Shown: positions 2,316 to 60,851 of the stretch, one piece after another | Layout of the letters: every line of letters starts with the position of its first letter | Numbering within the stretch: the first letter of the stretch is position 1 | Assembly: GCF_030684315.1 (NCBI RefSeq) | Contig: NC_081357.1 | Span: forward strand, 42,767,517 to 42,831,516 | Direction of reading: 5' to 3' | Source: Stegostoma tigrinum | Lineage: Eukaryota | Length of the DNA stretch: 64,000 nucleotides | Translations under genes and position numbers: made by a program | The notes under the pieces: model-generated | Seen by the model: the letters and a program-made list of their open reading frames with translations, nothing else | The model's database searches: none | Told to the model about the DNA's origin: nothing

Positions 2316-2504
2316 AAGATAACAAAGTGTGGAGCTAGATGAACACAGCAGGCCAAGCAGCATCTCAGGAGCACAAAAGCTGACGTTTCGGGCCTAGACC
2401 CTTCATCAGAGAGGGTGCTCCTGAGATGCTGCTTGGCCTGCTGTGTTCATCTAGCTCCACACTTTGTTATCTTGGATTCTCTAGCATCTGCAGTTCCCAT
2501 TATC
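2316..2504. mobile_element. Palindromic non-autonomous PLE-end element (family A)
   Basis: Inverted PLE 3' ends; 15-bp TSD ACCTTAAACTGTAAT at 2301-2315 and 2505-2519. Confidence 0.9.
2382..2409 (-). ncRNA. Minimal type-I hammerhead ribozyme motif
   Basis: CTGATGA-AGGG-TCTAGG-CCC-GAAA-CGTC on the minus strand. Confidence 0.75.
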
Positions 2505-3344
2505 ACCTTAAACTGTAATGCTCGTTTTTCCCATGTTTAGCAATGAGGCCTCATTTTGATAAAGGGTTTGCAATAGGAATGACAGCCCAAAGGCCTGATT
2601 GACCTTTAAAATACCTGGTAGCACTCATTAAAAGAAGTGACACCATATAAGCCCCTCCTTCAGAACAGTGACCAATTGTTTAGGATTAAGTGTGGCTTTT
2701 ATGTCAATGTCAAGAGTTACTTCATACCACTAAAAGAGATAATCATTATTTCATATTCCTTTGCAACTGAAGCTATGAAGTTGACATTTAATACAACAGG
2801 GGACTTTCTGAGAGCTTGTGATATTACCAACACTCAAGCAACCATTAGACATTAATTATCTGAAGACCTCACCAAGCAATTACTAGGTCAACGGACCACT
2901 AACATCATAAGGGTTTCCTTTTGGGTTGATAAAGACCATTCATAAGACTAGGCAGAGTAGCACCAGAAACAGCAGGAGAGAGGAAAGCAAAGTGGTGGTA
3001 TCCTTCTCTACTGCGGGTGCAGGAGTAAACTCTGTTAGAAATTCTTGTGTCACATCAGAGAAACTATGTGCTTGTTCCCTCAGTTTCTGAACCATTCTGC
3101 CACGTACTTTTGTGTACCAGCCAGCATAGACCACTCCATCAGTGGAAGTGACTGGAAGCAACAAATCTATACTGCTGTACAAAAGTTGCACCTAATCATT
3201 GAAATGCTGAGCCTTTAGATGTCTGTTTAGCACCACCAACTAGTTCAAGTTATGCTAATCAGCACAACAAATAAGATTATGTACCACATTGAGGCTTTGA
3301 AACAAATGTATTCTATTAGCACTGTACCCATTTAGCACTTCACT

Positions 3345-3470
3345 AACAACTGAAGAAGGAGCAAGGCTCCAAAAGCTTGTGTTTTCAATTAAACCTGTTG
3401 GACTATGACCTGGTGTCATGTGATTTCTGACCTTGTCCACACTAGTCCAACACCGACATCTGCACATCAT
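3345..3470 (+). mobile_element. PLE 3' end (family D) with decayed hammerhead
   Basis: CTGAAGA-AGGAGC-AAG-GCTCC-(A)AAA-GCTT at 3350-3378, followed by aattaaacctgttggactat. Confidence 0.6.
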
Positions 3471-3595
3471 AGAACATAGAACATTACAGCGCAGTACAGG
3501 CCCTTTGGCCCTCAATGTTGCACCGATCTGTGAAACCAATCTGAAGCCCATTTCACCTACACTGTTCCATTATCATCCATATGTTTATCCATTCA
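3470..3595 (-). mobile_element. HER1/CR1 3' tail fragment
   Basis: (agaacat)n tail and cagtacaggccctttggccc, matching the 3' end of the CR1 at 33985. Confidence 0.75.
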
Positions 3596-4221
3596 CCATT
3601 CAGCCAAAATGGCTACTGAGTTACAAGAAACCCTTGCTGAATGAATTGGAATCATTATCCTGAAATACACTACTTGCTACCCACTGTAGACCAAAGTTAT
3701 AGAGCAAAGCATAATTAGAATTATTATCATTGTCAGAAAACTGTTTTGACTATTTTTCATGTAACTTCTGCCTTCTATTATATGACAGACCTTCCCATTT
3801 ATTCTTTACTGCCCTTCCCTTTTCTATGCTCGTTGAAGGCAGAGCAGCAAAGTAACTAAGTCTGAACTTTGTAAAGTTTTATGAATGGAGAACATCATTT
3901 CAAACGAATACATTTCACTGAGCACTGAAGCAAAAAACAGCCCTACTTTTAAAATAGTGTTTGTTCTTGGCTTATTCCTCATGTCCAGAACATGGTAAAC
4001 AACATTAGTGTAAGGCAAACTTTGTTTGAATCTTGACAGAAAACACAAGTCAATCAAGATTGGAACATCAACCAGCAACGCAAATGACGCATTTAACTTT
4101 CTACATAGATTGGTTAAATATGCATCCTGGTACATGATCATCTAAAACGCACTCTATAATGTGTTCCTTCAATACTGTGTTAAGTTCTAAATCAACAAGA
4201 AAAGCTGTGGGGATAATTCAG

Positions 4222-4410
4222 GGATAATGGGAACTGCAGATGCTGGAGAATCCAAGATAATAAAATGTGAGGCTGGATGACCACAGCAGGCCCAGCAGCA
4301 TCTCCCCATCCCCCTCTCTGATGAAGGGTCTAGGCCCGAAATGTCAGCTTTTGTGCTCCTGAGATGCTGCTGGGCCTGCTGTGTTCATCCAGTCTCACAT
4401 TTTATTATCT
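4222..4410. mobile_element. Palindromic PLE-end element (family A)
   Basis: Inverted arms; TSD GGGATAATTCAGGG at 4210-4223 and 4411-4424; hammerhead at 4318-4345(+). Confidence 0.9.
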
Positions 4411-4649
4411 GGGATAATTCAGGGGTCAGTTTTCAGAACTACAAGGAAAGACCAGAGAAACCGGTTTGTCAGTGGATTAGCAAGATCACAGAGAGCTGAA
4501 TTTATAAACTTATGTAAAGTTGGTAAGGGGAATCCAGAAGAAGGTGGGTTGGAGGAGGCCACAGAAGAGGTTATTAAAGTTTCCACAACAAGTAAGAGGA
4601 CCGAGTATTGAAACGGTCAAGAATATAAACTCAGGCAGAGCAGATAGGG

Positions 4650-7600
4650 AACAGGAATCAGAAGGAGGCTAGACACCGCAGGACTGAGGGTATGATACTT
4701 AAATTCATAAGTATACAAAACAAGGTAAAGATGGAAATTAGCAGGTATGTTGTTGTGGGTATCACAGATACGTGGCTGCAAGGGCTGGAAACCAAATATC
4801 CAAGGACTTGCATCCTATTGAAAGGATAGGCAGATGATCAGGAAGGGGGGACAGGGGTTGCCTTGTTAGTAAGAGAGGAAATTAAATCAATAGCAAGTGG
4901 TGAAATGGAGTCAGAAGGCATTGAATTTGTGGGATAATAAAGTGTGGAGCTATATGAACACAGCAGGCCAAGCAGCATCTTAGGAGCACGGAAGCTGACG
5001 TTTTGGGCCTAGACCCTTCATCAGAGAGGGGGATGGGGAGAGGGTACTGGGATAAATAGGGAGAGAGGGGGAGGCAGACCGACGATGGAGAGAAAAGAAG
5101 ATAGGTGGAGAGGAGAGTATAGGTGGGGAAGTAGGGAGGGGATAGGTCAGTCCAGGGAAGATGGACAGGTCAAGGAGGTGGGATGAGGTTAGTAGGTAGG
5201 AAATGGAGGTGCGGCTTGGGGTGGGAGGAAGGGATGGGTGAGATGAAGAACAGGTTAGGGAGGCAGAGACAGGCTGGGCTGGTTTTGGGATGCAGTGGGG
5301 GGAGGGGAAGAGCTGGGCTGGTTGTGTGGTGCAGTGGGGGGAGGGGATGAACTGGGCTGGTTTTGGGATGTGGTGGGGGAAGGGGAGATTGTGAAGTTGG
5401 TGAAGTCCACATTGATACCATTGGGCTGCAGGGTTCCCAAGCGGGAATATGAGTTGCTGTTCCTGCAACCTTCGGGTGGCATCATTGTGGCACTGCAGGA
5501 GGCCCATGATGGACATGTCATCTAAAGAATGGGAGGGGGATTGGAAATGGTTTGCGACTGGGAGGTGCAGTTGTTTATTGCAAACCGAGCGGAGGTGTTC
5601 TGCAAAGCAGTCCCCAAGCCTCCACTCGGTTTCCCCAATGTAGAGGAAGCCACACCGGGTACAAAGGATACAGTATACCACATTGGCAGATGTGCAGGTG
5701 AACCTCTGCTTAATATGGAAAGTCATCTTGGGGCCTGGGATAGGGGTGAGGGAGGAGGTGTGGGGGCAAGTGTAGCACTTCCTGCGGTTGCAGGGGAAGG
5801 TGCCGGGTGTGGTGGGGTTGGAGGGCAGTGTGGAGCGAACAAGGGAGTCACGGAGAGAGCGGTCTCTCCGGAAAGCAGACAAGGGTGGGGATGGAAAAAT
5901 GTCTTGGGTGGTGGGGTCGGATTGTAGATGGCGGAAGTGTCGGAGGATGATGCGTTGTATCCGGAGGTTGGTGGGGTGGTGTGTGAGAATGAGGGGGTTC
6001 CTCTTTGGGTGGTTGTGGCGGGGGTGGGGTGTGAGGGATGTGTTGCGGGAAATGCGGGAGACGCGGTCAAGGGCGTTCTCGATCACTGTGAGGGGAAAGT
6101 TGCGGTCCTTGAAGAACTTGGACATCTGGGATGTGCGGGAGTGGAATGTCTTATCGTGCGAGCAGATGCGGCGGAGGCGGAGGAATTGGGAATAGGGGAT
6201 GGAATTTATGCAGGAGGGTGGGTGGGAGGAGGTGTATTCTAAGTAGCTGTGGGAGTCGGTGGGCTTGAAATGGACATCAGTTACAAGCTGGTTGCCTGAG
6301 ATGGAGACTGAGGTCTAGGAAGGTGAGGGATGTGTTGGAGATGGCCCAGTTGAACTTGAGGTTGGGGTGGAAGGTGTTGGTGAAGTGGATGAACTGTTCG
6401 AGCTCCTCTGGGGAGCAAGAGGCGGCACCGATACAGTCATCAATGTAACGGAGGAAGAGGTGGGGTTTGGGACCCGTGTAGGTGCGGAAGAGGGACTGTT
6501 CCATGTAACCTACAAAGAGGCAGGCATAGCTGGGGCCCATGCGGGTGCCCATGGCCAACCACTTTGTCTGTAGGAAGTGGGAGGAATCGAAAGAGAAGTT
6601 GTTGAGGGTGAGGACGAGTTCGGCTAGGCGGATGAAGGAGTCAGTGGAGGGGGACTGGTCGGGCCTACAGGACAGGAAGAAGCGGAGGGCCTTGAGGCCA
6701 TCTGCATGCGGAATACAGGTGTATAGGGACTGGAAATGAGGTGTTGGGGGCCAGGGAGTTGGAAGTTCTGGAGGAGGTGGTGGGTGTGGGTGGTGTCACG
6801 GACGTAGGTAGGGAGTTCCTGGACCAAAGTGGAGAAAATGGAGTTCAGATAGGTGGAGATGAGTTCGGTGGGGCAGGAGCAGGCTGAGACAATGGGTCGA
6901 CCAGGGCAGGCAGGTTTGTGGATTTTGGGAAGGAGATAGAAATGGGCTGTGCGGGTTTGGGGAATAATAAGGTTGAAGGCTGTGGGTGGGAGGTCCGCTG
7001 AGGTGATGAGGTCATGAATGGTGTTGGAGATGATGGTTTGGTGCTCGGGGGTGGAGTCATGATCAAGGGGGCGGTAGGAGGAGGTGTTGGAGAGTTGGCG
7101 TTTGGCCTCGGCGATGTAGAGGTCAGTGCACCATACTACCACTGTGCCACCCTTGTCTGTGGGTTTGATGGTGAGGTTGGGGTTCCCCCACCGCATCCCA
7201 AAACCAGCCCAGTTCTTCCCCTCCACCCACTGCATCCCAAAACCAGCCCAGCCTGTCTCTGCCTCCCTAACCTGTTCTTCCTCTCACCCATCCCTTCCTC
7301 CCACCCCAAGCTGCACCTCCATTTCCTACCTACTAACCTCATCCCACCTCCTTGACCTGTCCATCTTCCCTGGACTGACCTATCCCCTCCCTACTTCCCC
7401 ACCTATACTCTCCTCTCCACCTATCTTCTTTTCTCTCCATCTTCGATCTGCCTCCCCCTCTCTCCCTATTTATTCCAGAACCCTCACTCCATCCCCCTCT
7501 CTGATGAAGGGTCTAGGCCCAAAACGTCAGCTTTTGTGCTCCTGAGATGCTGCTTGGCCTGCTGTATTCATCCAGCTTCACACTTTATTATCTTGGATTC

Positions 7601-8700
7601 TCCAGCATCTGCAGTTCCCATTATCTTTGATTGAATTTGTAGAGTAGAGTTGAAGAACTACAATGGAAAAAAGACTCTGATGGGAGTTATGTACGGACTT
7701 TCCAGCAGTAGTCAGGATGCGGTGCAGAAAATAAATGAGGAGATAAAAAGAAAGGCATATAGGAAAGACACTGTCACAATAATCATGGTGGGCTTCAATG
7801 GTGGACTGGGAAAATCAGGTTGGTAGCGGATCTCAAGAAAAGGAATTTGTTGAATGTTTACAAGATTATTTTTGGAACAGTTTGTGGTAGACCCCACTAG
7901 GAAAGCGGCAATTCTGGATTTGGTGATGTGTTATGAGACAGATTTGATTAAGGAGTTTAAAGTGAAAGAACCCCTCCCAGAGAGTGACCATAATATGATA
8001 AGAGTTCACCCTGCGGCTTGAGAGGGAGAAGCTGGAATCAGATGCAACAGTATGACAATTGAGTAAAGGTATCAACAAAGAAATGAGAAAGGAGCTGGCT
8101 AAAGTTGTTTGAAAGTAGACCCTAACATGGAAGAAGGTGGAGTGGCAATGGCAGGAATTTCTAGGGCAATTTAAGAGGCATAACAGAAATTCATCTGGAG
8201 GAAGAAGAAGCACACGAATGAATGAGGCAACCATGGTGGGCAGGGTAATTCAGAGCAGTATAAACGTGAAAGGAAGAGCAGGCAATGTAGTGAAGATTAG
8301 TGGGAAGTCAAAGGGCAGGGAAGCCTCTGAAAGCCTGCAGAGGGTAACTGAAAAAGCAATAAGATACAAGAAGATGAAATATGACAGCAAGCTAGCTAGG
8401 AATATAAAAGAAGATTGCAAGAGATTTTTTTAGATAACTGGTAAGGGAGAGGCAAGAATGGACATTGGACCACTGGAAAATGAGTCTGGTGAAGTAATAC
8501 TGGGAACAAAGAAATGACAGAGCAACTGAATAGGTACTTAGCATCAGTTTTCACAGTGGGAGACACCAGCAGCAAACCAGAATTTTATGTGAGCCAGGAT
8601 GAGGAGGTAAGTATAGTGGCCATCACGAAGGAGAAAGCATTCAGGAAGCTGAAAGGTCCGAAGGTGGATAAATTACCCAGACCAGATGGACTACCCCACC
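4650..8700 (+). mobile_element. Degenerate CR1 LINE (endonuclease/linker region) interrupted by the PLE at 4931-7629
   Basis: APE-like remnants (gcaattctggatttggtgatgtg, agtgaccataatatgat); the LKVDKSPGPDG-like segment resumes after the insertion. Confidence 0.8.
4931..7629 (-). mobile_element. Penelope-like retroelement (Neptune-like, family A): 5'-truncated RT plus GIY-YIG, with an inverted copy of its 3' end (7184-7629, +)
   Basis: IKPTDKGG, FYLLPKIHK..PGRPIVS, AMGTRMGPSYA, LRYIDD, Cys linker CNRRKCYTC, NVVYCI..LYIGET; 11-bp TSD ATTGAATTTGT at 4920-4930 and 7630-7640. Confidence 0.93.
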
Positions 8701-10654: not shown

Positions 10655-13385
10655 TTATGAGGTGAGGTTGAGTAAATTGGTCTTGTACTCACTGGAATTT
10701 AGAATAATCAGGAGAGACCTTATTGAAAGAAAGGAATTCTTTGGGGGCTTGACTGGGTAATTTGAGGTGAGAGAGGCCAGGACCAGGGGTATGATCTCAG
10801 TGTAAAAGGTCATATATTTAAGGCAAAAAATGAAGGGAAATTTCTTCTCTCATCGAGTAGTTAATTTATGGGATTCTTTATCACAGGGAGCAGTGGAGGC
10901 TGGATCATTAGGATGGTATCAAATTGAGAGAAAAATCGTAAAAACACGTTAAAGATTAGTAGTAAACCAGAAGATTGGAGATATTTTAAAAGCCAAAAAG
11001 ATAATCAAAAATATAATGGAGGGAGAAGATAAACTTCATTGGTAAACTGGCGAGTAATATGAAATGGATAGTTGAGAGCTTCCTTAAATATATCTATAAA
11101 GGAAAATAGAATGATTCTTTTAAGTTGGTGAGGCAATCAGGGATTATGGGGAAATAACAGGAATGTAGAATTGAGGATTGTTTGATCAGCCATGATCTCA
11201 TTGATCTTCTGCTCCTATATCTTATGGATTTATGGTCTTATGGCAGCCTGTAGTCGCTGCACTTGGATTCCAGAAGGCAATTAACAGGATTACAAATCAA
11301 AAGTTATTGTACAAAGTGGGATTCCATGGTGCTGCGATGAACATATTACCAAGGATAGAAAAGTGGCTGTCTGTCAAGAAAAGAGTGGACATGAATGGGT
11401 CTTTTTCTGCTGTGATGTGTGGAGTTCCATGAGAGCCTGCTGTGGGTTCTTAGTGATTCTGGTAAAGGAAGCGATATTTACAGACAGATAGGTGGAAATT
11501 TAAATTGTGAAGTCATGAGGAAGTTGCAGACGGTGATAAATAGGTTAAGTGAGTGATCATGCTCCCATGAGAAGCTTGAACAGATCACCAACTTCGCTAA
11601 CACCTTTCACCCCAACTTCGAAATTCACCTGGACCAGCTCCGATATCTCCCTCCCCTTCCTGGACCTCTCCGTCTCTTTCTTTGGTAACCATCTCAGCAC
11701 TGAGATCTATTTCAAACCCACCGACTCCCACAGCTAACTTGACCACACCTCTTCTCACCCACCATCCTGCAAGAATGCAATCCCTCACTCCCAATTCCTC
11801 CGCCTCCACCACATCTGCTTCCAAAATGGAACATTCCATACCCGGACATCCTAGATGTCCTCCTACTTCAAGGACCTCAACATGCCCTTTCTGTTGATTG
11901 AAAATGCCCTTAACCACAACTCTTGCATTTCCCACACTTTTGCCCTCAAACCTCCTCCCACCAACAAAAGTAAGGACAGAGTCCCAATCGTCCTCATGTA
12001 GCACCCCACCCACCTCTGCATATCACTCTCTACCACTTTCACCATCTACAATCCAATTCCACCACCAAAGAGATATTTGTCTCACCACCCCTGTCTGCCT
12101 TTCATTGGGACCACTCACTCCACAATTCCCTCATCCGCTCCACACTCCCCACTACCCCCGGTACCAATCTCTGCAACCAGAGGAAGTGCTCTTACATATC
12201 TGACTGAGGTTCACCTGAACATCCTCCAACCTGGTCTATTCTATCTGTTGCTCCCAAAATGGCATCCCCCACATCCATGAGAGCAAGTGTAGATTTGGTG
12301 ACTGATTCGTGGAGCTCCTGCTCTCTGTATGCTGTAATCAGCAACGCTTTCCAGTTGTGAACCACTTTAACACCTGCACCCATTCTCTGGGTGACATGTC
12401 CATCCTGGGCCTCCTCCAGTGCTATATTGACTCCACTCGCAACTGGAGGAACAACACCACCTCAGTAGCCTACAGCCCTATGACGTGAACATAGAATTCA
12501 CCAGTTTCAAAATCACCCCACCTCCGGCCTCATCTTACATCCAACTGTCCCTCTCATCCTCGCCTCCTTGACCTGACATAATCCATCTATCTTCTTCCCC
12601 ACCTATCCGCCCACTCTTCTCACTGACCAATCCCCACTACCGCCTACCTGCATCCATCTATCACTATCCTACCTACCGTCCCTAAGCCCCACCCGTTCTC
12701 CCTCTATTTCCCAACCCAATATGTTGACTCTCCTGCTCCTCTGATGCTGCCTGACCTGCTGTGTTCCTCCAGCTCCACACTGTATCAGCTGAGTAAACAT
12801 CTGAGAGGGAGTACAAGGTGGGAATATTTGAAATAGGTTACCTTGACACGAAGAATGAAAGAGCAGAATTAGTTAAATTAAGAACAATTACAGGTGTTTT
12901 CCAACACACACACCACAAAATGTTAGCGGGGACGATACCTGGAATGAGCAAATTATTTTAAGAGGAAAAGATGGACAGACAAGGCTCATTTCTACTGGAA
13001 TTTAGTAGTGAAGGGTGACTTGATTAAAGCGTATAAGGTCCTAAGTGGTCTTGACAAGCTGTGGAAAGGAGGTTTCTTCTCATGGAGTGGCATTGTTTCA
13101 AAATTAGATGTCACCCTTTGAGGACAGGGATGAGGGCAATTTTTCCGAGTTTGCACCATTTTGGAAATCTGACTCAAAAGGCATTGAGGGTGGGGTCATT
13201 GAATATTTTTAAGACCACAATATATAGCTCCTTGTTAGGCAATGGGATCAAAAGGTTATGGGTCGGTGGTAGGTCCTGGGGGTTGGGCAGATGGGAATTT
13301 TGAATTCAGGACATAAACGGATCAGCCGTGATCATATTGAATGGCAAAGCAGGCCACTCCTGCATCTAATTGGTATATTTGTAGG
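10655..13385 (+). mobile_element. Cluster of old CR1 fragments interrupted by the PLE at 11552-12790
   Basis: CR1 3' motifs (ttgtactcactggaatttagaa, gaccttattgaaa, gatcagccatgatc); GFQKA..KLLYKV RT remnant. Confidence 0.7.
11552..12790 (+). mobile_element. Degenerate Penelope-like element (RT C-terminus, GIY-YIG, 3' end)
   Basis: KFTWTSSDISLPFLDLSV..YFKPTDSHS; homologous to 4931-7183; ends gatgctgcctgacctgctgtgttcctccagctccacac. Confidence 0.85.
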
Positions 13386-14446
13386 AATATGGTAGAGGTT
13401 ATGGCTTTGGAAGTTGATGATTCAGGAAACTTAGTGAAATTCAAGCGGATCTCCTGTTTATGTACAAAGATTAGATAAATTTTAGCCAAGGCATTTGAAG
13501 AATTTGGCTTCTATTTTTCAAACAGTACTGTCTTATCTTTTACAGCAGCTACACTTCAGCAACAGATGGATTGAAGCCAAGGAAGAGGTTGTGGCCAAGG
13601 CAGAGAAGGGTGATATTATGAAAATTAAAATCCACCTGGAATTCCCTCCCTAATGGCATGGTGGATATACCTACAGCACATGGACTGTAGCAGTTCAAGA
13701 TCAAGAAGGCAGCTCATCACTAACTTCTGAAGGGCAACTAGGGATGAGTAATAATGGTAGCCCAGCCAATGACACCCAAGTCCAACCAGTGAATTTGGAA
13801 AAGTAGGCAGCTTGCGTGATATTATAAGTTTCAGACTGTTTTTTTTTCAGGGAAACTGTGTTAATACTTACTCTCACCTAAAATCATGCAATCACACTTT
13901 CTAGTAATGGCTACCACAAAGGGCTCAGGATTAGAAATATTGTTTATTTCCCACTTGCCTGCCTCACAGTGTTAGGACAGTGAACCCTTCTGGTTTCGGG
14001 GGCATTTAGAAGCATATCAGCTTTTGTCACACGTTAGAACATTCCCTTTTAAGTATAATTCAAGCACCAAGTTGTAATCAAGTACCTAAATGCTTAGAAT
14101 TTAATGTTAGTTATTCAGCTGGAACCGTGGCATTGACTTTGTCGTACACTTAAGTCAAATGCACTTAATGTTATGGTGTAATCAATAAAACACGTGCAGA
14201 ATGAAACACGTCTGCATTTTGAATCAGGTGCGTGACCTTGGAACTGCACTTTCTCTTCAATGCAATTGTGTTAGAATATTTACTGCATGTTAATAGATAA
14301 TATGTGCATTTCCAAACCAAAGAAAGTAAGTGTTGAAAAAATTGCTGAGGAATCCAGGGAAGGAAAGCGGGAAAAAAAACTTATGGAATGAAAGCTTGTA
14401 TAGCATCAAGAGGAATCTTAAAAGACCTGAAGGACATACACAATGA

Positions 14447-15210
14447 GGTTCACCTGCACATCTGCCAATGTGGTATACTGCATCCGCTGTACCCGGTGTG
14501 GCTTCCTCTACATTGGGGAAACCAAGCGGAGGCTTGGGGACCGCTTTGCAGAACACCTCCGCTCAGTTCGCAACAAACAACTGCACCTCCCAGTCGCAAA
14601 CCATTTCCACTCCCCCTCCCATTCTCTTGATGACATGTCCATCATGGGCCTCCTGCACTGCCACAATGATGCCACCCGAAGGTTGCAGGAACAGCAACTC
14701 ATATTCCGCCTGGGAACCCTGCAGCCATATGGTATCAATGTGGACTTCACCAGTTTCAAAATCTCCCCTTCCCCCACTGCATCCCTAAACCAGCCCAGTT
14801 CATCCCCTCCCCCCACTGCACCACACAACCAGCCCAGCTCTTCCCCCCCACCCACTGCATCCCAAAACCAGTCCAACCTGTCTCTGCCTACCTAACCGGT
14901 TCTTCCTCTCACCCATCCCTTCCTCCCACCCCAAGCCGCACCCCCAGCTACCTACTAACCTCATCCCACCTCCTTGACCTGTCCGTCTTCCCTGGACTGA
15001 CCTATCCCCTCCCTACCTCCCCACCCACACCTTCTCCACCTATCTTCTTTACTCTCCATCTTCGGTCCGCCTCCCCCTCTCTCCCTATTTATTCCAGTTC
15101 CCTCCCCCCATCCCCCTCTCTGATGAAGGGTCTAGGCCCGAAACGTCAGCTTTTGTGCTCCTGAGATGCTGCTTGGCCTGCTGTGTTCATCCAGCCTCAC
15201 ATTTTATTAT
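14447..15210 (+). mobile_element. Young 5'-truncated PLE (family A): GIY-YIG, 3'UTR and hammerhead
   Basis: ORF 14443-14895 NVVYCIRCTRCGFLYIGETKRRLGDRFAEH; 12-bp TSD CATACACAATGA at 14435-14446 and 15211-15222. Confidence 0.93.
15120..15147 (+). ncRNA. Minimal hammerhead ribozyme motif (intact core)
   Basis: CTGATGA AGGG TCTAGG CCC GAAA CGTC; GUC cleavage triplet. Confidence 0.8.
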
Positions 15211-15429
15211 CATACACAATGATCACTGGTTCCCAGAACAGAAACACATAAGACACAGTTGCACTGTACAATTCACAATTAAGTGTTCAACAAACACATC
15301 TTAAAGACATTGGATGAAGGCTCATCAATCTAAAACGTTAATTCAGTTTCTCTTCTTGCAAGCTGGCTGAGAACTTTTAGCATTTTCTGTTTTTATTTTA
15401 GATCTCCACAAGCTTTTTTAAAAATTCAT

Positions 15430-15975
15430 TCATTAATGTGAGCATTAGTGAGCAGTAGGGCCAGCATTTATTGCCCAGAGTGTAGTTAAGAGTCAACGAC
15501 ATTGCTGTGGATCCGGAGTCACACGTAGACCAGGCCAGGTAAGGACAGCAGTTTCCTTCCTTAGAGAGCATTGGTGAGCCAGATGGGTTTTTACACCCAA
15601 ACATTGATAACAGTTTTACAGTCATCATTCGACTCTTAACTCCAGATTTCACAGAATTCAGTTTCCACTATCTGCTATTTCCATGGTGGAATTCAATCCC
15701 AGATACCCTGAACTATTAAAAACCAGAAGAACTGTAGAAGCTATAAATCAGGAACAAAAACAAAGTTGCCAGAAAAGCTCAGCAGGTCTGGCAGCATCTG
15801 TGAAGGGAAAAACAGAGTTAATGTTTTGGGTCTGGTTCTGAGGAAGGGTCATCGGACCCGAAACATTTAACTCTGTCTTTTTCCTTCACTGCTGCCAGAT
15901 CTGCTGAGCTTTTCCAGCAACTGGGTCTCTGTATTAATAGTTTCATGATAATATCACTAGGCCATCACCTCCTTA
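15430..15975 (-). mobile_element. tRNA-like SINE (second family) with a nested family-B PLE palindrome
   Basis: Homologous to 17850-18170, 56310-56640 and 63760-63945 (ccatctggttcactaatgtccttt..ggaaa domain). Confidence 0.6.
15720..15922. mobile_element. Palindromic PLE-end element (family B)
   Basis: Inverted arms aaaagctcagcaggtctggcagc / gctgccagatctgctgagctttt; CTGAGGAAGGGTCATCGGACCCGAAAC hammerhead-like core. Confidence 0.8.
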
Positions 15976-16112
15976 ATGCAATATTTTATTCTGTATCACA
16001 GCAAAAATGTCTTCAGCCAATTCTATCTACCCACATGATACACAGTATCAGCTGAGTGCACCAGGTCTTGTAAAGGCTATGGGCTGTGTTCATTGGGTGC
16101 CCATTCTTTTTG

Positions 16113-16950
16113 AATATGCTATTTCAACGAGCCACCACACACTGCAGCACAGAGGAACAACGAAGAGCAGAAGAAAATCACCTATACAGCGTATTCAAAA
16201 AGAACGGGTACCCAATGAACACAGTCCGCCGATTTCTCAGCAACAAACCCAAACAAACAGACAAAACGAGCTCAGAAACCATAACCACTCTCCCCTACAT
16301 CAAGGACATTTCCGAAATAACTGCCAGACTACTCAGACCTCTTGGCATCATTCTAGCCCACAAACCCACCAACACACTAAAACCGCAGCTAATGAACTTA
16401 AAAGACCCTATACAGACAACAAGCAAAACAAATGTCATTTACAAAATACCTTGCAAGAACTGTGACAAACACTACATTGGACAAGCAGGCAGAAAGCTAG
16501 CCACCAGGATACATGAACATCAACTAGCCACAAAACGACATGACCCACTATCACTAGTATCCTTACATACAGATGAGGAAGGACACCACTTTGATTGGGA
16601 CAACACATCCATCCTAGGACAAGCCAAACAGAGACATGCACGAGAATTCCTAGAAGCATGGCATTCCAACTGGAACTCCGTCAACAAACACATCGATTTG
16701 GAGCCCATCTACCATCCTCTGAGAAAAAGAACAGGAAATGACATCACCAATGCAGGAAATGACATTACCAACCTGAGGAAACCTAAACAGAAACAGAAAG
16801 CGGGACATAACACCAGCGCTTCACCGGAGGCTCACTGATGATGTTACCTAGAATGGTGATGAAACGTCTGAAAACTAACCTTCCAGCTCAGCGAGCAAAC
16901 TTACATCCAGAACCTCAACCTGAGCTACAAATCTTCTCAAAACTCACTGA
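16113..16950 (+). mobile_element. Penelope/Poseidon-type PLE (family C): RT thumb, GIY-YIG and 3' end
   Basis: ORF 16086-16838: VFKKNGYP, TLPYIKDISE, NVIYKIPCKNCDKHYIGQ..RIHEH, REFLEAWH; no Cys-rich linker. Confidence 0.92.
16835..16868 (+). ncRNA. Minimal hammerhead ribozyme motif (family C)
   Basis: tca-CTGATGA-T-GTTACC-TAGAAT-GGTGAT-GAAA-CGTC-tga. Confidence 0.75.
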
Positions 16951-23994: not shown

Positions 23995-25090
23995 ATAAAA
24001 ACCGAAATAACTTTTTCCTCAACCAAGGAATCCCCAGCTCCATTGTCGACAGGGCCCTCACTCGGGTCTGACCCATCTCCTGCACTTCTGCCCTCACCCC
24101 TTCTCTTCCCTCCCACAAAAGTGATAAGGTTCCCCTTGTCCTCACCTACCATCCCACCAGCATCCACATCCAGAAGATCATCAGACGCCACTTCCACCCC
24201 TCTAGCAAGATGCCACCACCAGACACATATTCCCCTCCCCTCCCTTGTCCGCCTTCCACAGGGACCATTCCCTCCGAGGCATCCTGGTCCACACTTCCTT
24301 CACCCCCAACACCTCCCCACAGCCCTGTAACCGGTGAAGGTGCACAACCTACCCATTTACCTCCTCCCTCCGCACTATCCAAGGACCCAAATATACCTTC
24401 CAGGTGAAGCAACACTTCACCTGTATTTCCCAGAATCTAGTCGACTGCATTCGCTGCTCACAATGTGGTCTCCTCTTCACTGGGGGAAAAGAAGTGTAGA
24501 CTTGGCGACTGCTTTGCAGAGCATTTGTGCTCTGCTCACAAAAAAGACACTGAAATACGTGTTGCCTGCCACTTCAACTCACAACCCTGCTCTCTGATCA
24601 ACATCTCTGTCTCTGCCTTGCTGCAGTGTTTCATTGAAGCCCACCACAAGCTGGAGGAACAACACCTCATTTTCCACTTGGGGACCCTACAGCCCTCTGG
24701 ACTCAATATTGAGTTCAATAATTTTAGGGCCTAAACTCTCCCATGTCCCAGCCCCCCACCACACACACTAAACCTTGTTACCGCATGGCCTGCCACTGCA
24801 CACTCCCTGTTGTTAGTCACTAACATCCCCATTAACAACTATTCACCCTCCCAGCCTGATTATTAGCAACTCCTTTGTCTGTCCAACTGACTTTCTCTCT
24901 CTTTGGGCTCTATCCTATCGTTTACTCCCTACTCCACCCACCTCCCTACTTTCTGCATATAAACAGATGTTTTCCCAGCCACCATCAGTTCTGAGGAAGG
25001 GTCACTGGACCCAAAACGTTACCTCTGTTTTCTCCTCCACAGATACTGCCAGACTTGCTGAACTTTTCCAGCAACTTTGTTTTTGTTCCA
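23995..25090 (+). mobile_element. 5'-truncated PLE (family B): GIY-YIG, 3'UTR and decayed hammerhead
   Basis: RLGDCFAEHL..VACHFN..KLEEQHLIFHLGTLQPSGLNIEF; CTGAGGAAGGGTCACTGGACCCAAAACGTT at 24991; TSD TGTTTAAAYGGTGA at 23981 and 25091. Confidence 0.88.
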
Positions 25091-30109: not shown

Positions 30110-30197
30110 ATCTTCCAAATTCACTATTTTGTTTTCCATGCTCACCATATTTTATCTAAATGCATGCATTGTTAACTAAATAACATACAGCAGCTAT

Positions 30198-36534: not shown

Positions 36535-36626
36535 CTTCTAGCTTCCTCAAAATCAAGAAATTTAAGTGACTTTCAAATCTTAGTTCTTTCATAGTGGAGA
36601 ACAGAACACATGCTTTATCCAGGACA

Positions 36627-38700: not shown

Positions 38701-39929
38701 CATTTTTGTGAAGTCCCCCCCATTCTACAAATAACTACCTTATACAGTCCCCTCACTGTTCACTGTCTAAACCCAACAACCTAGTTAAATCTATGAAATT
38801 CTGTGCATTTTCAGATATTTACCAATATGTTTATCATATCACATCAACTTTAAAGCAGTGCAGGATAGAAGCACATTCAGAACATGTTAATGCTGAAATA
38901 GTTTTCAACCAGCAGAGGGATCTGCTGACCTTACACAAACCATTCATTGCATCCCCTAGTGGAGGGATCCAGAAGCTCAATTTAAAGAGCAAAAAGCCTT
39001 AGAAGCTCATGGTTTGCCAAACATTAGACGAGATAATGGATATTAGGCATCATCAAGACTACTATTTTGTTGCACTGCACACATCTGACAAATTGACACC
39101 CAGAGGCAACCTCAGTGTGCTGAAGGTGAAACCCTTCATCTGTAAGAGAGCCAGCTAAGAGAGCTGCTAACATTGAAATACTCACTCTAAAGGGAATTGA
39201 TACATATCACTTGACTTGAAAGTTGCACTTAGTCATTGTTTGTCAACAATACAGCAGGGACCAGCTTAAGATGGCAATAGATGATTCTTCAACAACTGAG
39301 CCTGTAAGGTTGGGCCAAGTTAATTTTGAAACATTGTGATGAGTTGTCATTTTGCAGTCTGTGCCAATTGTTCTACACTGTCCACATTGAGATAAAAATA
39401 CAATCATAAACAAATGATATCAAGCGCCAAAGTGAAGTTCTGGACTCAGAGACAGCAATTTAACAGTGTTCTGTCACTATCTCATGTAATTGTTATTGAT
39501 AAGCGACAAGAGATTGACCCTACTAAATAATGCATCCATGACCTTCTGGATAAACCTATCGGCAGCAAGCAAGCTGGCATTACAAAATTCCTCAATGCTA
39601 ATGTATAAGGAGCCTGATTAAAATAATTAGGATCATTGACTTTGATGCCAGTCCTCTTGAGATATTTTTATTCTTTCAGAGAATGAGGTCATTGCTGGCT
39701 TGGCTAGCATTTGCTGCAGATCCTCTGCGTAATCTGTGACCTTCCTGAAAATGATGGCATGCCTTTCTACAGTCATCACCCAGGTATCTTTACTACTACA
39801 GTAGTTTTGATCTGTAGTAGGCTTCAGGATTTGACAATATAACCGATTAAACAGTCAGCTCTTTCCTGTTCTGCCACTTTTGGAGCTAGTAAGTCACCAA
39901 TTGCACAAAAAATATGAGATCTGATAAGA

Positions 39930-40210
39930 ATCATAGAATCACTACAGTGTGGAAGCAGGCTATACAGCCCATTGAGTCCATACCAACCCTCCCACCCAGA
40001 CCTACACCATCCCCACATTTTCCATGGCCAATCCACCTAGCCTGCAAATCTTTGGACTACAGGAGGAAACCAGAGCATCTGGAGGAAACCCACGCAGATA
40101 CAGGGACAATATACAAACTCCACAGGGACAGTCACTCAATGGTGAAATCAAACCCAAGTCCCTGGTGCTGTGAGACAACAGTGCTAACCACTGAGCCACT
40201 TGCCGTCCCA
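39930..40210 (-). mobile_element. HE1-type V-SINE
   Basis: A box TGGCTCAGTGG, V-domain, HER1 tail. Confidence 0.82.
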
Positions 40211-40459: not shown

Positions 40460-43400
40460 ATGCTTTATTCATTAAAACATCCTTATATGCACACATAGAG
40501 TGGTTTGATTCTATACGCAGTCTTAATATGCAGAACAAGCAGACCCAAGGCACTTCTTACCTATATGATATTGTATTTACATACATTTGAGGTGTTGGGA
40601 GGGTTGGATAACTGAATGGATCCCACTGTACTTTAGCAGAAAGACCTTAGAAAATTGTCTTTCGCCACAGCGCTTTGGCAACGCTCAGTCGAAGTCAACT
40701 CCTTGCTCTGGAAGGCCAACAAGTTACAAGCATATCAAAGAGCATCTTCAACAAGTTGATAGTCCTCCAGCTATTGTCTTGTTGTGAGTCCCAGGGAACT
40801 GCCCAGAAAGCACAGAGCCCTGTGTCATGGAGCTGCTCGACAAAAACCAGTGCACCTCTCTCCAGGCGTCCTTTGCAAGGCACATTCCGGAAGGAGATGT
40901 GTGACAGTCTCTGCACCCCACTGCCAACAGCCACTTCAAAGGCAATGTGCCATGGCATAGAGCATCTGGGCATATATGAACGATCTCACAAGTATTGCCC
41001 TTCTCACCACCAGCCAAAATAATGTCTGGTGCATGTTGGAAAGTTCCAGTGATGAAAGTTCTGGTCATTTCTGCTAAATGACTTTGACAGTCTGCAGAGG
41101 GAACCACCTGACAAGATCTACCCTCTCCTTTTCCCTCAGGGCCTCAAGGACACGACATGCTGACCACTTCCGGATGGGCTTGTGGTCAAAATTGTTTTTC
41201 TTTGCAAATTTCTGTACGATGGACAGGTGTTACAGAGCAGCCCGACTACTCAGAGCCTTCTGCAGTGCCGAAGCTAGTCCCATCCTTTACGAAACCTGGG
41301 ATAGGTAGAAACTCAGTACCTAGTGACTCTTAGCCTTTGTGTACTGAGGGTCTATGCACACCTTGATGCTGCCATGTACAAAGGTGGCGTCAGGATAAGG
41401 TTCAGTACATTCTTCATCCCCTTACTTAGTCTTTGTGTGCCGTTGCAGATATAGTCCATCTTAGACCTCCAGGTGAAGTGGAATATGGCCCGGATGACTA
41501 CAACGGTGCAGGTTCTGGGAATGGGCCAGATCTGCTCCACAGGCAATAAGAGAGAGAGTACCTCACACCTGATGATCAGGTTTTTAGTTGTAACAGGGAG
41601 GGAGCAGTGCTCCTAAAAGGCCACTTGCTGCCTCACCTTGGTGAAGCACTTGTCCCAACTTTGCTCGCATGCCCCAACCCTTCTGAACCGTATTCCCAGC
41701 ATCTCCAAGTAACTTGTCCTGGTGGTGAAGGGGGTAAACAATAAGTTGGCCAAGTTCCCAAAAACCATGGCCTTGCTCTTGCCTTGATTTACTTTGGCTC
41801 TCTGGGCCAAACTAGTCACAGAGATCATGAATCTGCATACTGACAGTGGATCTGAACAGAAAATGGTGATGACATCCATCCACGAGAAGACTTTGACCTG
41901 CATGCCTCCACTGCCAGGAATAGACACCCCTCTCAGGCTCACATCCTTCTTGGTGGACTCAGCACAAGGCCCTGTACAACAGACAAACAAGGCAGGAGAG
42001 AGTGGACAGCCCTGCCTGACTTTGGATCTGATCCAGAAGCTTTCTGATTCCCTCCCATTGATTAAGACTGCACTAATGATGTTGGTGTAGAGCAGTTGGA
42101 TCCTATTACAGAGTCGCTTCCCAAAGCCCATTTTGGACAGCAGGCCGCACATGTAAGTGTGCTATATTGTGTCAAAGGCCTCCTCCTGGTCCAGGCTGAT
42201 GAGGTCAGTGTCCAGCCATCTGTCCTGCGCATAGACGATCATATCCCTGAGGAACGCAATGTTCTCAGAGATCATCCTGCCTGGTATGGCACAGGTTTGG
42301 TTGGGATAAATCAACAATGCTAGAGCAGACTTGACTCGGTTAGCAATGACCATAGAGAGGCTTTTGTAATGTACATTCGGCAGTGAAATTGGTCGCCAAA
42401 TTCTAGCATCCTCCCTCTCTCCCTTCTGCTTGTGATGGTGCCTTTCCTCATGGATTTGCACATGTTACTTGCAAGAAACATACTTTTGCACGCCTCCAGC
42501 AGTCCTGGCCAACAAGTTCCACAGAACATAACACAATTTGGCCAGTACGCCATCACTCCAGGAGTTTTCAGAGATAATGGGAACTGCAGATGCTGGAGAA
42601 TCCAAGATAACAAAGATAAAAAGACCCAAGGGTCTAGGCCTGAAATGTCAGCTTTTGTGCTCCTAAGATGCTGCTTGGCATGCTGTGTTCATCCAGCTCC
42701 ACACTTTGTTATTTCAGGAGTTTTATTCTTTTCTAAGGACTTAAGGGCCGTGTTCAGCTCATCTAGAGATACAGCAGGTTCAGCCTCTCAGCTTGTCTAA
42801 GCCCTACATGATAGAGGGCAGGAACGATTGGGAGGCCATACTGGCTTCATGTCATATGGTCTGGCATAAAAGGATTTGCTGATCCCCAGGGTGTCAGACT
42901 GGGATGACAGTACTGAGCCAGCTTCTTCCTCTAGGCTGCTGATCATAGAGCTCTCCCTGTGCACCTTTTGGAAGAAGAAATGTAAGCATGTCGCATCCTG
43001 CTCTACGGTGCAGACCCTGGACTGGAAAATTATCTTGGGGGCCTCCGAGGTGAGGAACGAGGCTTGTTGCATGTTCAGCTCATGGGGATCCTCCGTGACA
43101 TCAAATGCCATCATCTGCAGCAGGAATAGGTTCTGCATTCTTTTCTTCCATTTGGACAGATGTCACCATCTCTCTCACTTGCTTCTGCACACCTTTGGAG
43201 ATGAAGAACCTGTTGATGTTGGCTTGACTGTTTCCCACCAGTCTGCTGGACATCCAAAGAGGAGCTTATGGTTCTCCAACCTGTGTAATTCCTTTTGAGT
43301 TCCTCAATGTTTTCTGGGGTTAACAGTTTCACATGCAGCTTCCACATCTCCTTGCTGGCCCACTGGTCATCCTGCATGTGACAGTTGGCCAGCAGGAGGC

Positions 43401-47893: not shown

Positions 47894-52419
<4,526 letters not shown>

Positions 52420-52535
52420 GGTTACAAGCTGATGGCCTTATTGGGGAAGTTTGTGCCTGATAGTATTCCCAGTACGATCCGTGCCCAGGAAGAGTTAGCA
52501 GATTGTGAGAAGTGGCGAGCGCGTTCTGGGTTTGG

Positions 52536-56982: not shown

Positions 56983-57325
56983 GGGCAGCATTGTGGCTCA
57001 GTGGTTAGCACTGCTGCCTCACAGCGCTAGGGACCTGGGTTCGATTCCACCCTCGGGCAACTGTCTATGTGGAGTTTGCACATTCTCCCTGTGTCTGTAT
57101 GCATTTCCTCCCATAGTGCAAAATGGCACATGTTAGGTGGATTGGCCACGCTAAATTGCCCATAGTGTCCAGGGATATGAAGGCTAGATGGGTTAGCCAT
57201 GGGATATGTGGCGTTAGAGGGATAAAGTATGGGGTTGGGTCTGGATGACATACTCTTTGGAGGGTCAGTGTGGACTAGATGGGCTGAATGGTCTGTTTCC
57301 ACTCTGTAGGGATTGTATGATTCTG
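56983..57325 (+). mobile_element. HE1-type V-SINE
   Basis: TGGCTCAGTGG A box, GGTTCGATTCC B box, V-domain gtggagtttgcacattctccc, HER1 tail. Confidence 0.88.
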
Positions 57326-57349
57326 GGCATGGGCAGAGAAAATAATCCA

Positions 57350-58720
57350 GATATTGGTGATGGGGAATAATGTTCAAGTCCATTATACAAGATGCGATAG
57401 GAGAACACTTGGAAAATAGTGACAGGATTATACAGAGCCAGCAAAGATTTATAAAAGGGACGTGGTACTTAACAAATCTGTGACAATTTTTTGGCAATAG
57501 ACTAATAGAATAGATAAGAGGAAACCAATAGCTGTGGTTTAATTGGATTTTACCAGGCTTTTGCTAAGGTTCCACGTAAGAGATTAGCATGTAAAGTTCA
57601 AGTGCATGGGCTTGGAGGCCAAATACTGAAATGGACTGAGAATTGGTTGGCGGAGAGGATGCAAAGATTATGAATAAACAAGTATTTTTTCTGAGTAGCA
57701 GGCCATGATTAGTGGGGTACTGCAAGGATCAGTGCTTGAACCCCAGCTATTCTCAATATGTATTAATGGTTTAGATGAGGCAATCAGGGCTATATCTCCA
57801 AGGCTGCAGAAGAAACAAAGCTGGGTGAAGTTATGCTGTGAGGAGGATGCAGAGAAGCTTCTCTGTGATTTGGACAAGTTAAGTAAGTGGGCAAATAGGT
57901 GGCAGGTGCAGCATAATGTGGACAGATGTGAGATTATCTATATTGGTAGCAAATACAGGCAAGCAGATTATTATCTGAGCGGTGACAAACTGGGGAAGGG
58001 GAAGGTGCAAAGAGACTGAGGCATCTTTGTGCTCCACTCATCGAAAATAAGCAGGCAGGTGCAGCAGGCAGTGAGAAAGGCAAGTGAGAAAGCCAAATGA
58101 TATGTTGGCCTTCATAGCAAGAGGCTTCAAGTACAGGGATAGCGATGTCTTGCTGCAACTGGCAGGGCATTGCTTAGACCACACCTGAATTATAGTATCC
58201 AGCTTTGGCCTCTTTGTCTGATGAATGATGTTCTGGCTATTGAGTGAGAGCAAAGTGGGTTTACCAGACTGATTCCTGGGATGGTAGCACTGCCAAGTGG
58301 GGAGGACTGGATCACTATAGTTTAGACGTCTGAGGAGCAATCTCTTAGAAACCCTGTAAAATTGTAGAAAGACTGGACAGGGTAGATGTAAGAATGATGT
58401 TCTCGGTGACTGGGAAGTCTGGAACCAGGGGTCACAGTCAAAGGATAAGGGGTAGGCTTTTTAGGTCAGAGATGAGGAGAAATTTCTTTACCCAGCAAGT
58501 GGGGAGCCTGTGGAAATCTCTGCTACAGAAAACTGTTGAGGCCAAAACATGGAAGATTTTCAAGACATTCTTAGGATTGAAGGGTTCAGAAGATGTGGGG
58601 AGATAACATGAACAGGATATTGAATTAAATGATCAGATATGATCATATTGAATGGTGATCTGGCTCTAAGTGCCAAATAGCCTACTCCTGTTCCTATATT
58701 CTGTGTCTTTATATCTTTGT
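57350..58720 (+). mobile_element. Degenerate CR1 LINE, RT to 3'UTR
   Basis: SGVLQGSVL, TRGHSQRIRGRLFRSEMRRNFFTQ. Confidence 0.88.
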
Positions 58721-60589
58721 TCTTGATCATGATCCTGCGGTTTGGTGTTGGAACTAAAGGCACGTAGATTTAGAGTGGGAACAAGATCGAACCTGTTTTT
58801 GACAACTGACAATGTTCATTTTCCACACTGTAAAAAGAAGGGCCATTTAATGAAGCTGTGGCATGGGTTTTGCTTTACCAAAACTTTACCCGAAGGTGAA
58901 CTATCATTTTCAGGAGAAAAAGCAAGAGGAGAAAAGATACCGAGAAATTTGAAGAAAAGAAAGATAATCTCTGAAACCCAAAATGAAATTACAACTTTGT
59001 AACATCTCATTTAGTAGTTAATCTTTTTACAATATATGCCATGGCATGTTTGATTTATTTACACTAGCATTGGGTGCCATGGGTACAGACTGTCATACTA
59101 TTCCATGTAATTGATGTGTGCTGACATTGACTATCCCCCGAAGGTTCATTGTCTACTCTTCACTAAATTGTGATGCACGCAAAGAAAATACAGAGCAGAA
59201 ACTTTTATTATGAAATGCTATTTCATTCAAGAAACTCTTTTGAATTTCTCTATATGATGGAGATGTCTATCTGCTAGTAAATCAAGATTAATTTCCAGAA
59301 AATAGCTCAGTACTAATCTTTCTAGTAACATTTTGTGGATTTTTCATTATCATCGTTAAGATCTCGACTACTGAGTTTTTGTTTCAAACTTGTTTTGTCC
59401 TCATTTTGATTTTAGCTTTTCACCAATTATTCTGTGCAAAATCTTTTGCTCCAATTTCAATTTTCTTGCATCAGATTCCAGCAACAGAAATCTCTTTGGA
59501 TGACTATTGATAATTCTTTATAATAATTCTTTACCTGTTCTGACATGTTTCCTTTAAAACAACTTTTATTAGGGAATGACAATAAATGCCAATGATGCTC
59601 ACATCCCCAGAGCATTTATATATTATATATAGTTTTTTTTTAAATGTCACATAATAAGCACATTAGAGAAAAGTAGTCATTAAAAATGAAACAAACTGCC
59701 CCTGATAAACTTCTCGGTTTTCCCTATGCACTAAAAGTATAATGCACCTACAACTGCTCCCTTTATTTTATTGTGTAACAGTCCAAACTGAAACAAGCTA
59801 ATACAGTAATGAATTAAAATAATTTTCTTTGAGAATTATCAAATTATACAGCATAGACTGACACCATAAATAGCCAACATATGTTTAACTGCTAAATACT
59901 GTTTTTATTGTCCATCATCACTGAGTGGAATCCAAACTCACCTGTATTTATCATACAGTGCTCACCTGCCTAGTTGCAATTCTACATTCAACAGTTTTCT
60001 GTGAAGTGTCCTTCATATAATACAGATTCTGCAACGTTTATATAGTTTCTTACTCTACATGCCAGATGTCCCTAGTAAGGATGCAACAAAATGACTCTGG
60101 GGTACTTGCTGTGTTTTATTAACAGTTCAGGATAAATTGAACTTTTTTAAAAAATGAACTAAACCCAGGAGAGGCTGTGGGCACAATTCTCTGGTCTACA
60201 ACAAAAAAAAAGTGTATTTAGATAGCACCTTTTGCATTAAAAAATTCCTGGCATGCTGCAGGGTTATAATTTTAAAAAGGTGCTATTCTGCCAATGTGTC
60301 ATACCATCAGAAAATATTTCTGGAATAGCCTTGAAGGACGACCCCTGTTGACCCCCTGTAAACCCAGTTCATATAGGTGAACTCAGGGTGAACTAATCCA
60401 TCAGTGAGGGCCTTAAACCATAGTTAGGTTCCTATTTGTGAGAGTATAGAGTGTGTTACTTATTTTGGGCATAGGCACTGGATACCAGTCTTCTTGCTTT
60501 CTTTAACGTGGTGGAGGGAGGACCTCTGGCATATCCACTAATGTGGAAACTTAGAGTGTGATCCAGAAATGGACATTATAAGAGAGGAT

Positions 60590-60851
60590 GAGAGATAATG
60601 GGAACTGCAGATGCTGGAGAATTCCAAGATAATAAAATGTGAGGCTGGATGAACACAGCAGGCCAAGCAGCATCTCAGGAGCACAAAAGCTGACGTTTCG
60701 GGCCTAGACCCTTCATCAGAGAGGGGGATGGGGAGAACCCTCACCCCATCCCCCTCTCTGATGAAGGGTCTAGGCCTGAAACGTCGGCTTTTGTGCTCCT
60801 GAGATGCTGCTTGGCCTGCTGTGTTCATCCAGCTCCACACTTTGTTATCTT
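60590..60851. mobile_element. Palindromic PLE-end element with hammerheads on both strands and non-identical arms
   Basis: 17-bp TSD ACATTATAAGAGAGGAT at 60573-60589 and 60852-60868; hammerheads at 60692-60719(-) and 60758-60785(+). Confidence 0.93.

Follow-up and report, generated by a model that had tools for sequence, protein, structure and literature searches.

We analyzed a 64-kb stretch of the genome of the shark Stegostoma tigrinum (64,000 nucleotides; NCBI RefSeq assembly GCF_030684315.1, contig NC_081357.1, positions 42,767,517 to 42,831,516; hereafter the window) that contains hammerhead ribozyme motifs. These motifs are almost certainly the minimal type-I hammerheads of Penelope-like elements (PLEs). 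The reading that we consider likely, as judged from sequence, is that they lie at the pseudo-long terminal repeats (pLTRs) of four PLE families, here called A to D, in scattered, 5′-truncated and decaying copies, and that the family A hammerhead makes up the first ~32 nt of a capped transcript that is probably reverse-transcribed uncut.

Hammerhead cores lie at the ends of Penelope-like elements

An earlier sequence-only reading had placed hammerheads at eleven positions in the window. All eleven carry the motif or a decayed form of it, at PLE ends; three of them (2382, 29982 and 60692) mark the distal end of a copy on the minus strand, with the core cytosine C3 at 2409, 30009 and 60719, respectively. 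Scanning the window with a strict test (CUGANGA, a stem II of ≥3 bp, GAAA, a palindromic helix III and NUH) returned seven cores (2409−, 15120+, 16835+, 30009−, 30021+, 60719− and 60758+). A preserved minimal hammerhead is therefore present at seven of the eleven sites, and the other four (3350, 24991, 4318 and 15838) are decayed. G12, described as the general base of the hammerhead in PMC6155905, is lost at 3350 (the sole family D copy in the window) and at 24991 (family B), where AAAA replaces GAAA. Helix III is the expected palindrome, ACGT in families A, B and C and AGCT in D, except at 4318 (ATGT) and 15838 (ACAT), where it is lost. With G12 gone at 3350 and 24991 and the palindrome gone at 15838, the window holds no intact B or D copy. 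The G10.1–C11.1 pair is Watson–Crick in four of the seven strict cores and G·U in 16835, 30021 and 60758, and the cut predicted after C15147 is correctly placed. Additional cores absent from the earlier reading were found at 5024− and 7501+ (both without G12), along with further truncated copies, and a profile search detected 29 footprints in the window (27 A/B-type, one C and one D).

Chance origin of the cores is excluded: 60 Markov resamples of the window gave a mean of 0.1 strict cores (maximum 1) against seven observed, 880 kb of sampled genome gave 48 against 0–1 in ten resamples, and a reversed pattern had no match genome-wide. An Rfam covariance-model search of the window gave 25 matches at E ≤ 10, none of them to a hammerhead family. 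This miss would be expected of a form that lacks helix III and whose short helix I is open; the matches to microRNA families correspond to fold-back pairs and all fall below the gathering score. The window is also not the special local cluster that it had appeared to be, since its density of 109 per Mb (7 per 64 kb) is only about twice the genome average of 54.5 per Mb (48 per 880 kb). No intact cores of one family lie on the same strand within 10 kb of each other in the window, and none of its eight tandem repeats contains a hammerhead. The window copies appear to be passive relics, and the motif itself is already known.

The four families belong to two clades

The families had been taken as unrelated, but they represent three lineages at most, in two clades: A and B are sisters (open reading frames [ORFs] 66.9% identical in DNA and 49–58% in amino acids, with core and tail alignable), D is a distant relative, and C forms a separate clade. 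In all four, the hammerhead lies downstream of an ORF encoding a reverse transcriptase (RT) and a GIY-YIG endonuclease. All 29 other family A loci examined match the family A element of the window, and most extend into its ORF; within the window, the RT-bearing copy at 4933–7187 ends in a hammerhead, and a GIY-YIG ORF (14431–14895) precedes another. The ORF is in line in at least 12 of 30 family B loci and in 30 of 30 family C loci. The first 30 family D loci had no ORF within 1.5 kb; one step further upstream, four of the 30 (L202, L225–L227) had one in line, encoding RT, thumb and GIY-YIG with 27–33% identity to A, beyond a long, microsatellite-bearing 3′ untranslated region.

A CX2-5CxxC zinc linker between RT and endonuclease is present in A, B and D and absent from C. 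As described in PMC8557442, this linker marks Neptune and Nematis, and Penelope and Poseidon are without it. By this sequence feature, A, B and D are of Neptune/Nematis type (the two are not told apart here) and C is Poseidon-type. The closest named homolog by identity is a Chiloscyllium protein (76%), which fits a shark genome.

Family A is the youngest and most numerous family (4% divergence). Among the 20 long-ORF loci that we fetched for it, L254 has a 1,132-aa RT and GIY-YIG ORF (RVT_1, E = 1.2e-06; GIY-YIG, E = 0.003; both just under the Pfam cutoffs), and L254, L262 and L267 have hammerhead ends at both sides in direct orientation, that is, tandem pLTRs. Only in L262 are both cores intact, 3,691 nt apart. 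The both-end repeat is thus shown for family A, and the 3′ pLTR copy for B, C and D. In L262, the main ATG lies 166 nt after the C3 of the 5′ pLTR and is preceded by short upstream ORFs of 13 and 27 codons; the first of these begins inside the hammerhead core. At about residues 240–345 of the L254 ORF, between N-terminus and RT, lies a low-complexity T-P-P-T-A-D-G-like repeat of variable unit number. Equal-scoring family A RT copies occur on many small contigs (C111, C122, C144, C225, C496, C560, C592, C687, C781 and C792), which suggests a large repeated unit.

5′ junctions suggest that family A transcripts start at stem I

Short copies start 0–7 nt before CUGA, with no clear spike at the cut site. 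Upstream sequence continues in 64 of 146 A-type copies, and the remaining 82 are truncated: the break falls 0–7 nt before C3 in 53, at 8–95 nt in four, and within the first bases of the core or at imperfect matches in 25. Genome-wide, 9,498 family A 5′ junctions fall at −4 (4 nt before CUGA), compared with 50 at an upstream control at about −29. Among the matches listed, the base before the element at −4 is G in 82 of 100 (AG 56, GG 14, TG 12). In these same listed matches, G outnumbers A 26:3 once A-led junctions are excluded (p = 2e-05), TG:TA is 12:1 (null 1.40; p = 0.009), and GG:GA is 14:2 versus 2:13 at a control site at +7 (p = 5e-05). Junctions at −2 follow the same direction (KG 1,184 versus WA 381; null ratio about 0.9–1.0). 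An extra G at the 5′ junctions of full-length L1 copies is read as cap copying in PMC11702581. Taken as a sequence record, these junctions make it quite likely that family A transcription starts at stem I. A splice acceptor at the start site was considered and rejected, the element being without AG there.

Cut-site 5′ ends number 3,622 matches (about 2,800 loci) versus 2,012 at +7. Among the matches listed, 44 of 100 are both strands of 22 palindromes centred on AGCT. We had considered cut-site ends as a fossil of in vivo cleavage; the count comes near the +7 control once the AGCT palindromes are set aside, although the minus-strand window copy at 30298 does start there. Perfect palindromic insertions centred on the AGCT that begins at the cut site may total 800 genome-wide, and could arise by snap-back from cleaved RNA or by simple microhomology.

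The 3′ ends cluster 64–67 and 97–105 nt past the cut site, and a further cluster at 47–48 nt probably represents sister subfamilies losing alignment. Ends at two positions are reminiscent of the Anolis Poseidon element PAc, with its two internal RT start sites and 30–40-nt tail (Frangieh et al., 2024; PMC11167929).

The family A hammerhead is not predicted to fold readily on its own

Folding energies were computed with nearest-neighbour parameters, which ignore tertiary contacts. For a short family A fragment, an inactive fold that pairs CUGAUG with CGUCAG (−11.4 kcal/mol) is favoured over the hammerhead (−3.6 kcal/mol), and the probability of stem I is about zero; stem II does form in short-fragment folds. 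The dimer fold reaches −5.5 kcal/mol against −38 kcal/mol for the best co-fold. The fragment 15090–15210, suggested earlier for cleavage assays, is not predicted to fold as a hammerhead, and in its best fold stem II is lost too. Nor does dimer cleavage through close pairs fit, because the pairs 30009/30021 and 60719/60758 lie on opposite strands: as head-to-head hairpins of about 100 bp (−200 and −213 kcal/mol, respectively), they cannot be dimer partners, and the sense copy would be buried in the fold-back. The stem-I strands of A and C do not match for a mixed dimer either. Published minimal hammerheads show no activity as monomers and low activity as dimers (Cervera and De la Peña), and cleavage of the PAc hammerhead requires the PAc protein (PMC11167929). 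Given this need for protein, weak folding in isolation is to be expected.

Core decay is driven by CpG transitions

The unbiased sample holds 82 family A copies, 39 of them intact and 43 broken; in 26 of the broken ones, the only damage is by transitions at two core CpGs, which overlap G12 and the palindrome. Sites differ at 48 of 328 CpG positions versus 16 of 820 non-CpG positions of the core, and this CpG-driven decay makes the copies look like relics. CUGANGA with GAAA is the modal form in the A, B and C clusters; in family D, counted over the three commonest forms of 70 copies, GAAA occurs in 20 and AAAA in 35, which fits CpG decay. We also considered selection on individual copies (non-CpG core 16/820 versus tail 132/3,444, p = 0.008) and did not use this comparison, which is confounded by profile ascertainment, base composition and master variants.

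The ACGT or AGCT palindrome is kept in all four family masters, and the core with its two hypermutable CpGs is kept across A, A2, B and C. Differences among the cores of A, A2 and B are confined to two tolerant positions, N7 (U, A or G) and H17 (C or U), while their ORF DNA is 67% identical. The first two pairs of stem I are kept in 98 and 93 of 106 unbiased A/B copies; pair 2.2–1.2 is C–G in 49 of these 93, U·G in 24 and U–A in 20, through about three subfamily events. Stem I pairing maintained through few changes is, at the level of sequence, what retention of the ribozyme by replicating masters would be expected to leave. Covariation had been ascribed to stem II, where it is weak: the A/B stem is homologous, with a single one-sided change (U·G to U–A), and neither the C nor the D stem can be aligned with it. 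The paired change between subfamilies lies in stem I. Helix I is 2 bp in A, 4 bp in B and 3 bp in both C and D, against 2–5 bp in published examples, which puts A at the lower limit.

Intact cores are abundant genome-wide

The unbiased sample comprised 88 stretches of 10 kb (880 kb), 48 hand-picked without looking and 40 random; 12 further stretches fell off short contigs. Its 48 strict cores extrapolate to about 174,000 genome-wide (bootstrap 127,000–222,000), and the 12 with a stem I of ≥3 bp to about 44,000. G10.1–C11.1 is G–C in 40 of the 48. Counting decayed copies, 232 footprints in the 880 kb cover the core. Of 12 adjacent strict-core pairs in the sample, two are on the same strand, both more than 5 kb apart. 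The exact A/B-type core pattern has 111,803 matches in the genome. Cervera and De la Peña (2014) counted about 4,000 hammerheads in the coelacanth and 9,000 in Xenopus (the top count named). The >110,000 intact cores are an order of magnitude above these published single-genome counts, which were obtained with a different search descriptor, ours accepting a 2-bp stem I. Lunse, Weinberg and Breaker reportedly found a total of about 150,000 small hammerhead variants (2016/17).

Insertions and other features of the window

The best family A hammerhead and its tail occupy 15116–15211 (+), within an insertion flanked by a 12-bp target site duplication (TSD; 14435/15211), with an inferred transcript start at 15116. 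Stem I is formed by 15118–15119 and 15148–15149, the core by 15120–15126, stem II by 15128–15139, GAAA by 15140–15143 and the palindrome by 15143–15146; cleavage is predicted after 15147. Identical 125-nt copies of this stretch number at least 40 genome-wide. Upstream of it is the GIY-YIG end of a family A ORF (14446–14895, +; stop codon 14893–14895; Pfam PF01541, E = 5.4e-05; 96.6% amino acid identity to L254). A longer 5′-truncated family A PLE at 4933–7187 (−; C3 5024, G12 lost) retains RT, thumb, zinc linker and GIY-YIG in a frameshifted ORF (87–92% amino acid identity to that of L254), and is joined by an inverted, 5′-truncated partner at 7185–7626 (+; C3 7501, G12 lost). At the C-terminus of the family A ORF, a 39-nt tandem repeat (2.9 copies) is found at 5273–5386 and 14764–14875.

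Shorter family A copies include one with an intact core at 2316–2413 (−; C3 2409; 15-bp TSD 2301/2505), back to back with a tail-only copy at 2415–2504 (+), and one at 4306–4415 (+; C3 4318, its palindrome broken by a CpG transition) with an inverted tail copy at 4219–4304. Two head-to-head fold-backs, 29881–30114 (C3 30009− and 30021+; 17-bp TSD 29865/30110) and 60591–60854 (C3 60719− and 60758+; 17-bp TSD 60573/60852), each form a single long hairpin, of ~100 bp in the former. Family B is represented by a fold-back pair at 15753–15930 (+; C3 15838, palindrome broken) and by a 5′-truncated PLE at 24132–25090 (+; C3 24991, G12 lost) with thumb, zinc linker and GIY-YIG to about 24730. The single family D copy is short (3341–3470, +; C3 3350), with G12 lost and stem I broken. 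TSDs of 12–17 bp flank five of the nine window insertions tested.

The 5′-truncated family C PLE at 16074–16950 (+; C3 16835) has a GIY-YIG match (E = 0.013, below cutoff) and no zinc linker; its hammerhead has a 3-bp stem I, a 6-bp stem II and a predicted cut after 16868. In this copy the UGA of the hammerhead core serves as the ORF stop (16836–16838, +). We rejected the core UGA as a general family C stop codon, because it was seen in the window copy only, and most relatives have 2 additional nt immediately before it, so that the master frame may differ. An older Neptune-type PLE fragment (11557–12532, +) has 46–64% amino acid identity to family A, and its truncated hammerhead end is at 12714–12785.

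An SGK1-type kinase gene of at least 10 exons lies at 47894–52437 (−; best PDB match Sgk1, E = 2.7e-23). No hammerhead footprint falls between its exons, and the fold-backs upstream of it, at 56.4 and 60.6 kb, are 4 and 8 kb away. RT fragments of non-LTR (non-long terminal repeat) retrotransposons occur at 825–1451 (+), 25921–26403 (+), 34082–36572 (−) and 41613–42161 (−), the copy at 34–36.5 kb also carrying an APE-type endonuclease. A dispersed family of 200–340-nt repeats, 70–80% alike and probably a short interspersed element, is found at 31989–32296, 39929–40199, 49556–49764 and 56983–57322.

Discussion

We propose that the pLTR promoter of family A fires about 4 nt before CUGA, which would make the hammerhead the 5′-most structure of the transcript and leave room for a stem I of only 2–4 bp. 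An internal pLTR promoter is described for D. virilis Penelope (PMC2377424). The PLE protein would prime at two internal sites. On the 5′-most repeat it would run to the cap, add a G and often snap back, giving stubs of 95–135 nt and fold-backs; priming at the 3′ repeat would lead to long copies truncated to varying extents. Most templates would be uncut RNA. Cleavage may be slow and depend on a tandem transcript's second (3′) hammerhead, the PLE protein or both, by extension from PMC4209133 and PMC11167929; it would remove the capped 32-nt leader and release unit-length RNA. Such a decapping role for the family A hammerhead is a tentative suggestion from its position. With similar caution, the hammerhead of shark Neptune-type PLEs might be a cap-proximal switch, in which cleavage clips the 32-nt capped leader (so that translation ends and a 5′-OH unit RNA is freed), insertion uses uncut capped RNA, and thousands of G-led stubs record this; we hold this to be possible rather than probable.

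The pile-up before CUGA could instead reflect RT stalling or falling off a longer RNA (at a structure, a bound protein or a C-rich tract just upstream), with the G arising from snap-back templating or untemplated addition. Many junctions are indeed inverted and AG-led, breakpoints inside core and tail are common as well (about 2,000 per site), and R2 proteins are known to snap back (PMC11371274), as has been inferred for PLEs (PMC3846280). Several of our results also weigh against a capped start at stem I. Among the matches listed, AG accounts for 56 of the 82 G-led junctions of family A and could be templated by an inverted partner; in family B, which has 1,791 junctions at −4 (without an upstream control), G is not in excess (G 36, A 50 and T 14 of 100 listed). 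Family C shows no 5′ pile-up at the core. The tallies of 100 listed junctions were counted by eye and come from the beginning of one contig; of the 53 breaks near C3, 23 are scored at 1 nt owing to upstream differences between sister subfamilies; and the cut site, 1.4-fold above one control site before palindromes are removed, allows for some cleaved templates. To these can be added the preference of the short fragment for its inactive fold. Nevertheless, stalling does not readily account for the TG excess at −4 among the matches listed, since TG is not easily templated by an inverted partner, nor for the roughly 190-fold drop in junction rate a short way upstream. Furthermore, the flank resembles an initiator, presumably of TCT type in A and TCAGTT in B. 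Snap-backs of R2 follow full-length cDNA (PMC11371274). Overall, we consider stalling improbable.

The family A hammerhead might be vestigial as a catalyst, its sequence kept as a promoter or RT-binding signal without useful cleavage. The 2-bp stem I, the CUGAUG–CGUCAG pairing in the minimum-energy fold and the poor dimer energy are all in line with this, as is the finding that A is nonetheless the youngest and most numerous family; moreover, PAc still inserts in vitro when its hammerhead is mutated (PMC11167929), and Naiads are described as thriving without hammerheads (PMC8557442). However, retention of the core and its CpGs across A, A2, B and C, and of stem I pairs through changes, speaks against a vestige; a 2-bp helix I also occurs in PLEs of D. 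virilis, Culex and Oikopleura, and the protein dependence of PAc predicts weak solo folding. A vestigial hammerhead seems rather unlikely to us, and useful catalysis in family A is somewhat favoured. Far less credible is the reading in which four ribozymes, each acquired independently, make up a dense and active local set cleaving via palindromic dimers at these loci. The excess of intact cores over chance in 64 kb and the palindrome kept in all four masters suit it, but A and B are homologous, the density is genome-wide, the close pairs are inverted hairpins, intact same-family, same-strand cores within 10 kb are lacking in the window, A and C stem-I strands mismatch, and over half of the unbiased A copies (43/82) are already broken. 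For the window loci, this reading is already largely refuted.

Much of what we observe matches published PLE minimal hammerheads (Cervera, 2014): CUGANGA with one extra base, G10.1–C11.1, GAAA, palindromic positions 15–16 and a short helix I, located in pLTRs, mostly as single truncated copies, with opposite-strand pairs 100–700 bp apart. Cartilaginous fish are not among the species of Table S1 or Fig. S3 of that work, and a transcript start at stem I is not described there; in D. virilis the intron ends at helix I. PAc shares the pLTR hammerhead, two internal RT start sites and uncut RNA as the main template (PMC11167929), but its ORF starts inside stem II, unlike the family A ATG, which lies 166 nt after C3 behind two short upstream ORFs. 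PAc is also a Poseidon, and only C is Poseidon-type here, A, B and D having the zinc linker. The endonuclease-bearing PLE clades as described by Craig et al. (2021; PMC8557442) share the C-terminal GIY-YIG, tandem and inverted pLTR insertions, and the tail; the small dimer-cleaving hammerhead variants, as summarized in a review (PMC6765202), share a short stem III, PLE association and the dimer model. Non-LTR retrozymes (PMC7229834; bioRxiv 10.64898/2026.07.22.740005), reported in one chondrichthyan genome, are likewise short non-coding PLE derivatives with type-I hammerheads; as characterized in those sources they form head-to-tail tandem arrays, whereas the copies here are dispersed stubs or head-to-head fold-backs, with no hammerhead array in the window. 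Our literature search found no shark PLE hammerhead or stem-I start, in coverage that excluded Lunse et al. and the bioRxiv supplements, which may name the chondrichthyan and give counts. Motif, pLTR location and dimer model are already published; what is new here is the counting of junctions across the whole genome against controls, together with the G test, which failed in family B.

PLE hammerheads are reported to cleave poorly alone and to be dispensable for insertion in vitro (PMC4209133, PMC11167929, PMC8557442). Family A, which is young and has a 1,132-aa open ORF, tandem pLTRs and >100,000 insertion records, offers a direct test bed for the role of these hammerheads. If true, a start on stem I explains why this stem is so short, and suggests that the PLE hammerhead functions in decapping or regulation rather than in making the template.

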